DNA of 64,000 nucleotides from Eledone cirrhosa (lineage: Eukaryota): NCBI GenBank assembly GCA_964016885.1, contig OZ024744.1:21452001-21516000 (forward strand), read 5' to 3'. A program made the translations under genes and the position numbers. The notes below the pieces were generated by a model. That model did no database searches and was not told where the DNA came from. It worked only from the letters and a program-made list of their open reading frames with translations. How positions within the stretch are numbered: position 1 is the stretch's first letter; each line of letters starts with the position of its first letter. Below, piece by piece: positions 11,599 through 19,654 of this stretch.

Positions 11599-11667
<69 letters not shown>
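11595..11667. repeat. (TA)n microsatellite
   Basis: Direct reading of the sequence. Confidence 0.95.
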
Positions 11668-11669
<2 letters not shown>

Positions 11670-11849
11670 CGTTTCTGAATTTGTTTAGCAAGATTCTATA
11701 TCTGAAATCGTGTGTTGAAACCGATATTGTTATACTTTGGGATATTGTTATACTTTGGGAAACCGATATTGTTATGTTTCTGTGACACAGAAACAAAATG
11801 ACGTAGGATAGAAGAAAGGAAAGGCACAGAAACGAAGAAAGGAATCCCC

Positions 11850-11894
11850 AGTCACTGAAGAGGTCACAGAGTGTGTGACGAAAGGACTATGACT
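11850..11894 (+). ncRNA. Degenerate minimal type I hammerhead motif
   Basis: agtca-CTGAAGA-g-gtcaca/gagtg/tgtgac-GAAA-ggac-TA-tgact. Stems I and II pair, but there is one extra G after the core and stem III is not palindromic. Confidence 0.5.
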
Positions 11895-12094
11895 ATATAT
11901 ATAAACAACTATCTGGTTGTGGAACCAACCAACCAACCAGAAATTTATAAGTTTGTAGATTTGTAAATTTGTAAACTTATAAATTTATAAATATATAATA
12001 AATTAAAGTGAAAGCAACTGGTGCGTGTGTTTCTTATTGGCAGCATGACCCTCCCAAAGTATAACAATATATATATATATATTTATATATATGA

Positions 12095-14043: not shown

Positions 14044-14117
<74 letters not shown>

Positions 14118-14331
14118 GGAAGTGAGTTTTATTGTAGTACAATAAAGCAATGCAGATATCGGATAACATATATGTTGATTTAAAACTGCACTATTCACAA
14201 GTGTGTTTTAACCTTCATATCATGTCTCCCTATTTTATCTGACGAAAACGCAAATGTTATTGCTTGATGATATTTGTTTTTGAAATGCGCATAATAAAAT
14301 ACATGAAACTCTTTTAACCATCTTTTGATCT

Positions 14332-14340
<9 letters not shown>
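13712..14340 (-). mobile_element. Helitron (family B-like 3' end) with expanded microsatellites
   Basis: The minus strand at 13712-13745 reads tacccgagcaacaccaggtacttctgCTAG|T, matching the 3' end at 9736-9763. The 5' limit is uncertain and is placed at the tatataatatataagatc-like sequence near 14340. Confidence 0.55.
13760..14115. repeat. (TA)n/(ATGT)n compound microsatellite
   Basis: Direct reading of the sequence; source of the YI/CMYV ORFs. Confidence 0.95.
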
Positions 14341-14362
<22 letters not shown>

Positions 14363-14363
<1 letters not shown>

Positions 14364-16334
14364 GAATATAGACATAGAATATTCGAAAATATTCTGTATG
14401 TTTATAATAAACATTTTGAAGACCTAATCGCTATAGAATAGAATACGTCACGTATTACAATTAGATTCTCGATAAAAGCAAGGGAAGTAATCTACGCGTT
14501 TCATTCTTGTTAGAATTCATCAGGACTACATATCCAGTGCTTTTATCGAGAATGACACAGCTAGAGACTTATAGAATACTTAGCTGTGTACAGGAACTGG
14601 TTTGAAAGAGCGGTTGCCGGTCCGGCAGAAATTAGAAATTGGAATAAATGCTCTGAAATAGCGATATATATGTGAATATAGACATAGAATATTCGAAAAT
14701 ATTCTGTATGTTTATAATAAACATTTTGAAGACCTAATCGCTATAGAATAGAATACGTCACGTATTACAATTAGATTCTCGATAAAAGCAAGGGAAGTAA
14801 TCTACGCGTTTCATTCTTGTTAGAATTCATCAGGACTACATATCCAGTGCTTTTATCGAGAATGACACAGCTAGAGACTTATAGAATACTTAGCTGTGTA
14901 CAGGAACTGGTTTGAAAGAGCGGTTGCCGGTCCGGCAGAAATTAGAAATTGGAATAAATGCTCTGAAATAGCGATATATATGTGAATATAGACATAGAAT
15001 ATTCGAAAATATTCTGTATGTTTATAATAAACATTTTGAAGACCTAATCGCTATAGAATAGAATACGTCACGTATTACAATTAGATTCTCGATAAAAGCA
15101 AGGGAAGTAATCTACGCGTTTCATTCTTGTTAGAATTCATCAGGACTACATATCCAGTGCTTTTATCGAGAATGACACAGCTAGAGACTTATAGAATACT
15201 TAGCTGTGTACAGGAACTGGTTTGAAAGAGCGGTTGCCGGTCCGGCAGAAATTAGAAATTGGAATAAATGCTCTGAAATAGCGATATATATGTGAATATA
15301 GACATAGAATATTCGAAAATATTCTGTATGTTTATAATAAACATTTTGAAGACCTAATCGCTATAGAATAGAATACGTCACGTATTACAATTAGATTCTC
15401 GATAAAAGCAAGGGAAGTAATCTACGCGTTTCATTCTTGTTAGAATTCATCAGGACTACATATCCAGTGCTTTTATCGAGAATGACACAGCTAGAGACTT
15501 ATAGAATACTTAGCTGTGTACAGGAACTGGTTTGAAAGAGCGGTTGCCGGTCCGGCAGAAATTAGAAATTGGAATAAATGCTCTGAAATAGCGATATATA
15601 TGTGAATATAGACATAGAATATTCGAAAATATTCTGTATGTTTATAATAAACATTTTGAAGACCTAATCGCTATAGAATAGAATACGTCACGTATTACAA
15701 TTAGATTCTCGATAAAAGCAAGGGAAGTAATCTACGCGTTTCATTCTTGTTAGAATTCATCAGGACTACATATCCAGTGCTTTTATCGAGAATGACACAG
15801 CTAGAGACTTATAGAATACTTAGCTGTGTACAGGAACTGGTTTGAAAGAGCGGTTGCCGGTCCGGCAGAAATTAGAAATTGGAATAAATGCTCTGAAATA
15901 GCGATATATATGTGAATATAGACATAGAATATTCGAAAATATTCTGTATGTTTATAATAAACATTTTGAAGACCTAATCGCTATAGAATAGAATACGTCA
16001 CGTATTACAATTAGATTCTCGATAAAAGCAAGGGAAGTAATCTACGCGTTTCATTCTTGTTAGAATTCATCAGGACTACATATCCAGTGCTTTTATCGAG
16101 AATGACACAGCTAGAGACTTATAGAATACTTAGCTGTGTACAGGAACTGGTTTGAAAGAGCGGTTGCCGGTCCGGCAGAAATTAGAAATTGGAATAAATG
16201 CTCTGAAATAGCGATATATATGTGAATATAGACATAGAATATTCGAAAATATTCTGTATGTTTATAATAAACATTTTGAAGACCTAATCGCTATAGAATA
16301 GAATACGTCACGTATTACAATTAGATTCTCGATA
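14363..16334 (-). repeat. Left arm: ~6.4 x 310-bp units, ribozyme on minus strand
   Basis: TCATCAG (revcomp of CTGATGA) at 14517, 14827, 15137, 15447, 15757 and 16067. Confidence 0.97.
14465..14553 (-). ncRNA. Type I hammerhead ribozyme (first of 6 minus-strand copies, repeated every 310 bp)
   Basis: Reverse complement of the motif described at 16411-16499. Confidence 0.9.
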
Positions 16335-18805
16335 TCTGCCGGACCGGCAACCGCTCTTTCAAACCAGTTCCTGTACACAGCTAAGTATTCTATAAGTCTC
16401 TAGCTGTGTCATTCTCGATAAAAGTACTGGATATGTAGTCCTGATGAATTCTAACAAGAATGAAACGCGTAGATTACTTCCCTTGCTTTTATCGAGAATC
16501 TAATTGTAATACGTGACGTATTCTATTCTATAGCGATTAGGTCTTCAAAATGTTTATTATAAACATACAGAATATTTTCGAATATTCTATGTCTATATTC
16601 ACATATATATCGCTATTTCAGAGCATTTATTCCAATTTCTAATTTCTGCCGGACCGGCAACCGCTCTTTCAAACCAGTTCCTGTACACAGCTAAGTATTC
16701 TATAAGTCTCTAGCTGTGTCATTCTCGATAAAAGCACTGGATATGTAGTCCTGATGAATTCTAACAAGAATGAAACGCGTAGATTACTTCCCTTGCTTTT
16801 ATCGAGAATCTAATTGTAATACGTGACGTATTCTATTCTATAGCGATTAGGTCTTCAAAATGTTTATTATAAACATACAGAATATTTTCGAATATTCTAT
16901 GTCTATATTCACATATATATCGCTATTTCAGAGCATTTATTCCAATTTCTAATTTCTGCCGGACCGGCAACCGCTCTTTCAAACCAGTTCCTGTACACAG
17001 CTAAGTATTCTATAAGTCTCTAGCTGTGTCATTCTCGATAAAAGCACTGGATATGTAGTCCTGATGAATTCTAACAAGAATGAAACGCGTAGATTACTTC
17101 CCTTGCTTTTATCGAGAATCTAATTGTAATACGTGACGTATTCTATTCTATAGCGATTAGGTCTTCAAAATGTTTATTATAAACATACAGAATATTTTCG
17201 AATATTCTATGTCTATATTCACATATATATCGCTATTTCAGAGCATTTATTCCAATTTCTAATTTCTGCCGGACCGGCAACCGCTCTTTCAAACCAGTTC
17301 CTGTACACAGCTAAGTATTCTATAAGTCTCTAGCTGTGTCATTCTCGATAAAAGCACTGGATATGTAGTCCTGATGAATTCTAACAAGAATGAAACGCGT
17401 AGATTACTTCCCTTGCTTTTATCGAGAATCTAATTGTAATACGTGACGTATTCTATTCTATAGCGATTAGGTCTTCAAAATGTTTATTATAAACATACAG
17501 AATATTTTCGAATATTCTATGTCTATATTCACATATATATCGCTATTTCAGAGCATTTATTCCAATTTCTAATTTCTGCCGGACCGGCAACCGCTCTTTC
17601 AAACCAGTTCCTGTACACAGCTAAGTATTCTATAAGTCTCTAGCTGTGTCATTCTCGATAAAAGCACTGGATATGTAGTCCTGATGAATTCTAACAAGAA
17701 TGAAACGCGTAGATTACTTCCCTTGCTTTTATCGAGAATCTAATTGTAATACGTGACGTATTCTATTCTATAGCGATTAGGTCTTCAAAATGTTTATTAT
17801 AAACATACAGAATATTTTCGAATATTCTATGTCTATATTCACATATATATCGCTATTTCAGAGCATTTATTCCAATTTCTAATTTCTGCCGGACCGGCAA
17901 CCGCTCTTTCAAACCAGTTCCTGTACACAGCTAAGTATTCTATAAGTCTCTAGCTGTGTCATTCTCGATAAAAGCACTGGATATGTAGTCCTGATGAATT
18001 CTAACAAGAATGAAACGCGTAGATTACTTCCCTTGCTTTTATCGAGAATCTAATTGTAATACGTGACGTATTCTATTCTATAGCGATTAGGTCTTCAAAA
18101 TGTTTATTATAAACATACAGAATATTTTCGAATATTCTATGTCTATATTCACATATATATCGCTATTTCAGAGCATTTATTCCAATTTCTAATTTCTGCC
18201 GGACCGGCAACCGCTCTTTCAAACCAGTTCCTGTACACAGCTAAGTATTCTATAAGTCTCTAGCTGTGTCATTCTCGATAAAAGCACTGGATATGTAGTC
18301 CTGATGAATTCTAACAAGAATGAAACGCGTAGATTACTTCCCTTGCTTTTATCGAGAATCTAATTGTAATACGTGACGTATTCTATTCTATAGCGATTAG
18401 GTCTTCAAAATGTTTATTATAAACATACAGAATATTTTCGAATATTCTATGTCTATATTCACATATATATCGCTATTTCAGAGCATTTATTCCAATTTCT
18501 AATTTCTGCCGGACCGGCAACCGCTCTTTCAAACCAGTTCCTGTACACAGCTAAGTATTCTATAAGTCTCTAGCTGTGTCATTCTCGATAAAAGCACTGG
18601 ATATGTAGTCCTGATGAATTCTAACAAGAATGAAACGCGTAGATTACTTCCCTTGCTTTTATCGAGAATCTAATTGTAATACGTGACGTATTCTATTCTA
18701 TAGCGATTAGGTCTTCAAAATGTTTATTATAAACATACAGAATATTTTCGAATATTCTATGTCTATATTCACATATATATCGCTATTTCAGAGCATTTAT
18801 TCCAA

Positions 18806-18813
<8 letters not shown>
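16335..18813 (+). repeat. Right arm: 8.0 x 310-bp units, ribozyme on plus strand
   Basis: CTGATGA at 16441, 16751, 17061, 17371, 17681, 17991, 18301 and 18611. Confidence 0.97.
16411..16499 (+). ncRNA. Type I hammerhead ribozyme (first of 8 plus-strand copies, repeated every 310 bp); predicted cleavage after A16471
   Basis: Stem I gtagtc(16435-40)/gattac(16472-77); core CTGATGA (16441-47); stem II attct-aaca-agaat; GAAA (16462-65); palindromic minimal stem III A-cgcg-T; GUA cleavage triplet. Stem I is extended past an internal loop by a 16-bp helix, attctcgataaaag(c/t)a / tgcttttatcgagaat. Confidence 0.92.

Positions 18814-18862
<49 letters not shown>
18814..18862. repeat. (TA)n flanking the ribozyme array (the counterpart tract is 14331-14362)
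   Basis: Direct reading of the sequence. Confidence 0.95.
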
Positions 18863-18863
<1 letters not shown>

Positions 18864-19140
18864 CTTGTAAGTGGCCGGACGTTGTATACGTAGTTGTAGT
18901 CGGATAAACGTCGAAACGGCTTGGTGGAATGCAGCGAAAATTTACACACTTATGCTGAATGACGCGAGGGGGGGGGGTCGAATTTCAAACTACAAGCTTC
19001 CAGGGTTACTGAGAAAATCGATGAAACAGGAATTTACCATGAAACAGCTAGCCAAAGGGAAGGCCGACTTTCAACGTCACGTCAGTAACGTGAACGCTCA
19101 ATTACGACATTTGATGTTTTACGCGTTCTAAGCAGACTTC

Positions 19141-19475
19141 TACTGCATAAACAACACATTCAAATTAATAAAGCTCCTCGATCGGCTTCCAGGGAATACA
19201 GTTTCATTTAAGTCTATTGACACCAACAAAAATACTGAGGATGCCACAATGTTTACCATTGAATTCCTCAACAGTCAAACACCTCTGGACTTCCGCCTCA
19301 CGACCTGCAGCTAAAATTTGGTTCACCGGTTATGATGCTGAGGAACTTGGACTCACCAACAATGTGCAACAGAACACGAATGGTCATCAAATCGTTAAAG
19401 TCCAAAATTCTGCTTGCGATAATCTTGAATGGACCAGCTGCTGGCACAGACGTTCTAATTCCTCCAGTACAACTC
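19141..19475 (+). pseudogene. Helitron RepHel PIF1-family helicase fragment (frameshifted)
   Basis: Joined translation: KLLDRLPGNTVSFKSIDTNKNTEDATMFTIEFLNSQTP/SGLPPHDLQLKFGSPVMMLRNLDSPTMCNRTRMVIKSLKSKILLAIILNGPAAGTDVLIPPVQL. This matches the Helitron PIF1 segment EFLNSL.PSGLPPH.L.LKVG.PIMLLRNL....LCNGTRL.......IP. There is a 1-nt frameshift at ~19284. Confidence 0.85.
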
Positions 19476-19654
19476 AGAACATGCACGGTTCGACTTCTTG
19501 TCGATCTCCGCTTCTGTGCCAGCCTCTTTTCGAAGCCATACATGGTTCGATTTCATGTCGTTCTTCGCTTCTGTGCCAGCCCCATTTTAATTGCAGGGCA
19601 AATAAGTGGAAACATTTCATAAGTTACTTCTTTTATTACCGTTATAAATATTTC

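Follow-up and report, generated by a model that had tools for sequence, protein, structure and literature searches.

A young family of non-coding hammerhead retrozymes in Eledone cirrhosa with strictly paired outer ends and a Penelope-type insertion footprint

A 64,000-nucleotide stretch of the Eledone cirrhosa genome (assembly GCA_964016885.1, contig OZ024744.1, positions 21,452,001 to 21,516,000; here called the window) contains a locus built of 310-bp repeat units, each complete one carrying a hammerhead ribozyme motif. The window sits on contig C28 of a 3.0-Gb genome, and the locus was analyzed together with its relatives in that genome. Judged from sequence, it is a very young copy of a genome-wide retrozyme family. 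The explanation that we favor, and consider probable, is that this non-coding hammerhead retrozyme was inserted by a Penelope-like element (PLE) protein, whose action would have been to open a (TA)n tract on both strands and to copy a single, likely circular RNA of 310 nucleotides (nt) into DNA from each of the two ends. The features that are most informative, fixed and strictly paired outer ends together with a Penelope-type footprint, were unmentioned in a preliminary description of the window.

The units are arranged in two head-to-head arms, both of which read outward and are flanked by (TA)n tracts. The left arm (14363 to 16334) comprises 6.36 units with the hammerhead sense on the minus strand, its outer (3′) end lying at a position termed site A and its inner (5′) end at unit position 156, and the right arm (16335 to 18813) comprises 8.0 units with the sense on the plus strand and ends outward at site B (unit 309). 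Unit positions are numbered from window position 16335, and the predicted cut follows unit position 137. Tandem Repeats Finder (TRF) likewise returned two 310-bp arrays, at 14354 to 16334 and 16335 to 18813. The inversion junction between the arms (16334/16335) is asymmetric, joining unit 156 to unit 1, and is blunt when read directly. The left target tract occupies 14332 to 14363 (TRF and direct reading) and the right one 18812 to 18862 (TRF); since (TA)n lies on both flanks, no target-site duplication is discernible, and the left outer junction is devoid of 2 nt of the unit's TA stretch. The preliminary description had reported 14 hammerheads in a single 310-bp tandem array. All 14 complete units do possess the core, but they form two opposed arms rather than one array. 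Two further claims about the units stood: a T for C at 16425 on the plus strand, an ordinary singleton at no hot spot, is the sole difference among them, and they are non-coding, with a longest stop-free stretch of 59 codons in the six frames of the circularized unit and no open reading frame (ORF) for reverse transcriptase (RT) or GIY-YIG endonuclease. The GC content of the unit is 0.34.

Across the family, outer ends fall at two fixed sites of the unit, site A within a TA stretch at unit positions 266 to 276 and site B at about 300 to 309, the latter being 26 to 33 nt further 3′. Among the first listed A (45) and B (54) junction ends on contig C1 (1 to 112.7 Mb), outward-facing ends paired as one A and one B in 36/36 cases, 18 each way round (P = 1.5e-11 versus independent choice). 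The same held for 65 loci chosen by position, 56 of which are two-armed: 54 showed A plus B, 2 had one unclassifiable end, and none showed A plus A or B plus B. The 65 loci were taken from most of the pairs above and from the unpaired ends; the 56 thus overlap the 36 pairs and are not independent of them, and L178, which is duplicated next to a gap, was excluded. A sister family of ~75% identity ends at the same two sites, and outer ends abut (TA)n microsatellites across loci. An inverted 5′-truncated copy, a tail at one end only, and a microsatellite target, all of them features of the PLE footprint, are thus present. The paired A and B ends correspond to the Penelope "tail" signature.

The two arms of a locus also share their variants. 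The same majority haplotype was found in both arms at 37 of the 38 testable loci, compared with a chance of 0.10 for two random loci. When 62 loci were typed, 30 haplotypes were obtained, and 25 distinct variants occur without exception in all units of the loci that carry them; within loci, 100 singleton and 20 multi-unit variants were counted in 191,680 letters (54 loci). The fixation of variants in all units of a locus indicates that lineages pass through one monomer between generations. Furthermore, 620 passes over the cut site yielded no singleton at unit positions 134 to 141 and one two-unit variant at position 138. Since scars or mixed haplotypes would be expected if copying had jumped end to end from one linear monomer to another, this fits a circle that was read several times round. 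Taken at the level of sequence, these data suggest that each insertion had a single RNA template the size of a monomer, likely a circle; in the window, the predicted 310-nt monomer from cut site to cut site, which would correspond to the circle, is represented on the plus strand by 16782 to 17091. No fixed variant lies in the catalytic core (0/25), but as about one was expected, this number is too weak when taken alone. A-to-I editing of the template is not claimed, since the excess of fixed A>G (7) over T>C (2) changes is at P = 0.05 and several of them are tolerated G-U wobbles in helices.

The family is large and young. A 22-mer of the young subfamily has 16,545 exact matches in the genome, corresponding to ~5 Mb, and A-end junctions numbered 1,205 genome-wide versus 7 for the control. 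On C1 (1 to 112.7 Mb), 63 end pairs or single ends were found, from which ~1,700 loci are extrapolated. The median of singleton differences is 0.024%, and 22/54 loci have no singleton at all. The arrays are dispersed, many, and free of long terminal repeat (LTR) structure, in line with a genome-wide search for the unit, which returned for instance 14,218 matches to the hammerhead core. The preliminary description had put forward a recently inserted retrozyme resembling a rolling-circle RT product, and the genome-wide anatomy, including abundance, paired ends, haplotypes, and the seamless cut site, supports that proposal. An older subfamily has a 312-bp unit of 94% identity, and sister repeats of ~75% identity account for 5,482 exact motif matches. 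A supposed C-to-T hot spot at unit position 91, seen in 8/9 best-hit loci and suggestive of a modified RNA base, was rejected because the query itself carried that T; the genome-wide count is 8 versus 16,545.

Several relatives and other hammerhead repeats were encountered in the same genome. Sister families of 313 to 322 bp (L064:7530-8116 and L080 to L109) retain the A-B region with different hammerheads. A second hammerhead repeat, of 424 to 430 bp with the palindrome ACTAGT (L066:4090-5588, L040, L056, and L030), has two ends of its own ~55 nt apart, and a third, with a 469-bp period, is also arranged head to head (L050, L083, and L105). A 555-bp non-coding hammerhead repeat (L120 to L144; 2,431 candidates) has a tail of 85 to 90 nt. 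Short TA-flanked elements in inverted pairs carry yet another hammerhead, with CTGAWGA and a palindromic AGTACT loop (L248, at G000:C1:30796000-30802000, and L090). No description of the 310-nt family or of a paired-end, single-template pattern was found in the literature; the supplement of PMC7229834, one supplement of PMC4209133, those of the preprint cited below, and Repbase/Dfam lay outside this search and may list the family. The words "ribozyme" and "retrozyme" are absent from the main text of a paper on Octopus vulgaris repeats.

The 43-nt hammerhead motif occurs eight times on the plus strand, from 16435-16477 every 310 bp to 18605-18647 (16435+310n), with the predicted cut after GUA at 16471+310n, and six times on the minus strand, from the outermost copy at 14487-14529 to 16037-16079 (14487+310n), with the predicted cut after 14493+310n. 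It consists of a 6-bp helix I, a 5-bp helix II, and a helix III formed by the palindrome ACGCGU, which amounts to 1 bp plus the palindromic loop CGCG, as a 2-bp helix would leave a 2-nt loop. The base pair at the foot of helix II is A-U and not G-C. At the Rfam gathering threshold, the unit gave no hit. Its best match is Hammerhead_HH9 (23 bits, where the cut-off is 52; E = 0.003), in the plus polarity only, and no ribozyme match was obtained in the minus polarity at E values up to 10. The "perfect type I hammerhead" announced previously is therefore confirmed as to its complete core, but with a weak helix III, the A-U pair in helix II, and a score below gathering it is better described as of the dimer type; nor was Hammerhead_1, the family proposed for the check, the closest one.

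In a monomer, helix III was calculated at +0.7 kcal/mol when closed and at −4.7 kcal/mol when open; for a duplex of two ACGCGU strands, the value is −7.5 kcal/mol. Given this costly closure and the favorable duplex, cleavage is predicted to need a dimer. Motifs with a helix III of 1 to 2 bp and a palindromic loop are expected to work as dimers in tandem transcripts, according to PMC4209133, and multimeric transcripts are predicted to self-cleave as paired (dimeric) hammerheads. The 16-bp helix that had been noted to extend stem I is present in the predicted fold, where it closes an internal loop below helix I (unit 2, 16721 to 16809 on the plus strand, with 16721-16736 pairing to 16794-16809), and its C91:G151 pair in the young subfamily corresponds to a compensatory T91:A151 in the older one. 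The fold of the monomer has a z score of −4.4, and none of 100 shuffled sequences folds as well.

The core pattern that has 14,218 exact genome matches has none for its reversed control, and the hammerhead is thus not a chance occurrence. When 10 hammerhead regions from the family, its sisters, and two further repeat families were aligned, mean column identity was 46%, yet the catalytic core letters are invariant in all of them and account for 9 of the 12 invariant columns; one sister family has a compensatory U3-A8 in place of the C3-G8 core pair. This pattern of an invariant core and a compensatory change suggests selection on ribozyme function.

In contrast to the outer ends, inner ends are scattered across the unit, with 1/70 falling within 5 nt of the cut site (one locus was counted twice). 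BLAST analysis of 54 clean junctions revealed an overlap of 1 to 16 nt in 32, a blunt join in 7, and extra bases in 15. At L066, the left arm is made of the 310-bp unit and the right arm of 3.5 copies of the 430-bp hammerhead repeat, and at L067 the right arm passes from the 555-bp hammerhead repeat into the 310-bp unit. The inner junction of L010 contains a fragment of an apurinic/apyrimidinic endonuclease (Pfam E = 0.001, below the cut-off), and pieces at L049, L034, and L037 look by eye like what we take to be integrase, PLE linker, and long interspersed nuclear element (LINE) RT, respectively. Foreign retroelement pieces at inner junctions are expected of an RT that switches its RNA template, and these pieces fit such an enzyme without naming it. 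Fold-back copying of the first cDNA is not favored, because either arm may be the longer one and the arms of L066 come from two families. A 272-bp GC-rich insert occupies the inversion junction of L203 (1999 to 2270) and has no match among the loci compared.

The following series of steps is proposed. Multimeric transcripts would self-cleave as paired hammerheads, and a host ligase is predicted to close the monomers into circles. At a (TA)n tract, a PLE protein would then cleave the two strands and bind, as a dimer, to the region of one RNA that holds sites A and B. Each subunit would begin at a different one of these sites and make several rounds of the circle. Short microhomology, or a piece captured from a further RNA, would finally serve to join the resulting pair of cDNA ends. 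At the window locus, a transcript entering from either flank meets the antisense arm first and could, as far as the sequence allows, form a duplex of up to ~2 kb. Because flank read-through could fold back in this manner, monomers would more likely arise from transcripts that start inside an arm.

Next to arrays lie candidate sources of such a protein, namely three abundant coding PLE families whose C termini bear GIY-YIG motifs. PLE-a (26,598 first-look candidates) has open frames of 1,167 to 1,257 codons and a CX4CxxC linker, and its atlas neighbors are RT/GIY-YIG clusters at 0.95 to 0.98; PLE-b (80,390 candidates) has frames of up to 713 codons and a CxCX5C linker, as in the Hydra clade; and the top copies of PLE-c (70,509 candidates) are 97 to 99% identical. 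These candidate numbers are not copy numbers. A Pfam search of the PLE ORFs gave no hit, and the class assignment is based on motifs and atlas neighbors. PLE-a inserts in (TA)n with one short end and one end bearing a 58-nt tail, and its own hammerhead lies ~150 nt upstream of the short end, compared with 139 nt in the retrozyme unit. In full-length PLE-a copies (L111, L113, and L117), the tail continues straight into the ORF; the short and tailed ends are thus near the 5′ end of a hammerhead-to-hammerhead unit, as in the retrozyme. The ends of PLE-b and PLE-c also lie in (TA)n. Inverted copies, short and tailed ends, and a TA target are shared by the coding PLEs of this genome and the retrozyme.

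A number of observations weigh against the PLE-driven copying of a circle. Neither blastn nor profile comparison of the unit and its sisters gave a match to the ends of PLE-a, PLE-b, or PLE-c, whose tails in two families are ~58 and ~54 nt as opposed to 26 to 33 nt in the retrozyme, and no candidate for the mobilizer was matched among the PLEs by end homology or tail length. Arm lengths are uncorrelated (Spearman 0.19, P = 0.17, n = 56), while a strictly coupled pair of enzymes might correlate them, and both ends of the chimeric locus L066 appear to be of the tail type. Variants common to several units occur in the longest arms (9/49 units at L194), including the one that L194 and L195 make up together (45 units and 14 kb; G000:C1:97461300-97476700), in which variants are common to 5 to 9 units; DNA-level expansion after insertion, or assembly error, contributes in this longest arm. 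At L207, the haplotype switches within one arm. The in vitro literature adds three points: only one of nine Xenopus retrozyme dimers was cleaved (bioRxiv 10.64898/2026.07.22.740005), the start sites of the PAc Poseidon enzyme described below do not differ between strands, and mutations in the PAc hammerhead leave insertion unaffected, unprocessed RNA being the main substrate (PMC11167929).

The last of these findings is also what a linear template would predict, that is, a long uncleaved transcript of an earlier array copied by the same PLE enzyme from the same start sites, with no role for the hammerhead or the circle in copying. Unprocessed RNA dominates among the substrates of the PLE in vitro (PMC11167929), one haplotype in both arms would also be expected of a homogeneous donor arm, and fixed ends alone do not show circularity. 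On a linear template, however, a fresh mutation would remain confined to the unit in which it arose, in contrast to the 25 variants fixed in all units and the resolution of 62 loci into 30 haplotypes, and arrays would shorten at each generation, whereas arms of 8 to 27 units are common. We therefore regard this version as unlikely. We attach still less weight to an origin of the arrays at the DNA level, whereby a single unit was retrotransposed or excised and then multiplied through extrachromosomal circles, unequal crossing-over, or gene conversion, and judge it improbable. Unequal crossover has been invoked for array growth (bioRxiv 10.64898/2026.07.22.740005), and 20 variants are common to at least 2 units, chiefly in the longest arms (L194, L172, and L203); but 100 of the 120 within-locus variants are singletons, many loci have none, both inverted arms are multi-unit and identical, and neither the pairing of A with B nor the TA target is explained by recombination.

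The unit might alternatively be the terminal repeat (pseudo-LTR, or pLTR) of an unsampled coding PLE and the arrays its truncated by-products, a possibility related to one raised in the preliminary description, according to which the unit could be merely the LTR of a coding Penelope element. The lack of an end match indicates that it is not the pLTR of PLE-a, PLE-b, or PLE-c, the three abundant families examined. The genome has many PLE families, of which these are three, and matches to known repeats have been obtained for 24/57 retrozyme families of Xenopus, 21 of the 22 being PLEs (10.64898/2026.07.22.740005). None of the ~100 family loci continues at its tail into a matching ORF, though, and none of the PLE loci scanned has a matching end. 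Descent of the unit from a pLTR is still likely, but the arrays propagate as units, and we hold the by-product version to be distinctly unlikely. An assembly artifact through fold-back chimeric reads or collapsed repeats is hardly credible: assembly is difficult where inverted repeats adjoin microsatellites (PMC8557442), and some loci lie next to gaps (L062 and L178), but the junctions are asymmetric and different at every locus, all 36 pairs obey the end rule, and contigs of X1, a public run that may derive from the source sample, show TA loose ends at the same sites.

The unit is also present in public runs under other organism labels. Twenty runs (17 studies and 18 organism codes) contain half or more of its words; the run list was ranked by likeness to the query, which favors the window haplotype, and the reads of 7 of the 20 runs were aligned to the unit. 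From X1 came 657 pieces, whose loose TA ends lie at unit positions 276, 304, and 307. X3, X5, X8, X11, X14, and X15, from six studies with six organism labels, each yielded one wrap-around contig of 331 to 340 nt that spans the full unit (depth 10 to 365, 0 to 2 differences, and four haplotypes); assembled contigs drop rare variants, and tandem DNA gives wrap-around contigs too. The dominant haplotype of X11 (114T and 122G, at depth 365) is a minority one in X1 (~14% at position 122), which argues that X11 is no simple subsample of X1-like DNA, and X11 also contains a piece resembling a sister family. In X23, a Hi-C run with the organism label of X11, none of 12.8 million reads matched the unit, but as the labeled organism is not demonstrable in that run, it does not constitute a test. 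For sample S12, X14 contains the unit (0.73) and X21 and X22 next to none of its words, which library type or carry-over could explain. No match was found in metagenome and viral contigs, and no RNA library is listed among the public runs that contain the unit. Library carry-over, contamination, or diet are plain explanations for the copies under other labels. That the 310-nt unit is a viroid-like circular RNA which moves between animal species and which a Penelope-type enzyme is endogenizing en masse in this genome, by two cDNA strands each time, is a reading based on the wrap-around contigs in six differently labeled runs and nothing more, and we consider it very unlikely.

The surroundings of the array in the window are rich in other repeats. 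A further TA-ended element, often with an inverted partner (942 candidates), lies at 14117 to 14331; the array was inserted into its TA end, and that element is no part of the retrozyme. A small head-to-head insertion of PLE-a in (TA)n, with short and tailed ends and its own hammerhead (11855), is located at 11667 to 12067, 2.3 kb from the array. On the other side, 450 bp to the right of the array, a frameshifted Pif1 helicase fragment occupies 19263 to 19619 within 18871 to 19622 (Pfam PF21530, E = 1.4e-12). It is probably Helitron derived and is no part of the retrozyme; a Helitron origin of the array was rejected, since other loci have unrelated flanks and fixed A and B ends. A 44-bp satellite with >1,000 copies and higher-order structure fills 19671 to 64000.

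How retrozymes are copied into genomes is stated to be open (PMC7229834; bioRxiv 10.64898/2026.07.22.740005), and the origin of tandem and inverted PLE insertions has been called unresolved (PMC8557442). The family described here is young and abundant enough for the mechanism to be read from the genome, in the form of two start sites used once each, one template, and a scarless crossing of the cut site. It makes retrozyme mobilization directly testable in vitro: the ingredients would be the 310-nt circle, a target of (TA)n, and the three candidate PLE proteins, whose frames are open. Nearly perfect inverted repeats, which in this family add up to ~5 Mb, may give rise to double-stranded RNA on a large scale and to genome instability, and if the copies under other labels were not contamination, they would represent a ribozyme circle that moves horizontally in animals.

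Among systems with which the family may be compared, L1 twin priming resembles it in that two target ends prime on one RNA to give a head-to-head inversion. The arms of L1 are, however, non-overlapping parts of a linear poly(A) RNA, whereas here they are overlapping multimers that start 26 to 33 nt apart. Viroid-like replicons of the Avsunviroidae type have ribozymes in both polarities, in contrast to the plus polarity only in the present family. The minimal and dimeric hammerheads of PLEs (Cervera and de la Pena 2014, PMC4209133) share with it a 1- to 2-bp helix III and a palindromic loop; it differs from them in an A-U or U-U that replaces the conserved G10.1-C11.1 and in the long extension of helix I.

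The insertions of PLEs of the Neptune, Hydra, and Naiad clades (Craig et al. 2021, PMC8557442) have in common with those of the retrozyme an inverted 5′-truncated copy, a tail of 30 to 40 bp at one end, a (TA)n target, and no discernible duplication, and the same paper mentions multicopy insertions, arranged head to tail, of non-autonomous Chlamys derivatives. Unlike these PLEs, the retrozyme has no RT/GIY-YIG ORF, both of its arms are multi-unit, and A plus B is found in every scorable single-family locus. With AT-rich DNA as the target, the purified PAc Poseidon protein (Frangieh et al. 2024, PMC11167929) cleaves and extends each of the two strands. Its reverse transcription begins downstream of the hammerhead, at two neighboring sites inside the RNA that bound the genomic tail; a dimer is predicted. 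Compared with PAc, retrozyme insertions use each site exactly once, and site A is TA rich and microhomologous to the target.

The closest resemblance is to the non-LTR retrozymes of animals (Cervera and de la Pena 2020, PMC7229834; bioRxiv 10.64898/2026.07.22.740005, the latter by Li, Clavereau and Pollet 2026, with no mollusc sampled according to its main text), for which PLEs have been proposed as the mobilizer. They share non-coding tandem units of 170 to 400 nt, a type I hammerhead, low GC content, and thousands of dispersed copies, and the amphibian repeats have a weak palindromic helix III, as does the 310-nt unit. The retrozymes in the available portions of those papers are head-to-tail tandems; two head-to-head arms, paired ends, and one haplotype per insertion go unreported there. 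Circles and cleavage have been shown for the coral, mussel, and axolotl retrozymes, while they are predicted for the 310-nt family, for which no pLTR parent was found among the three coding PLE families examined. Thus, the family is neither an autonomous PLE nor a member of an Rfam family at threshold, and on every testable feature it is an animal non-LTR retrozyme with a PLE insertion footprint.

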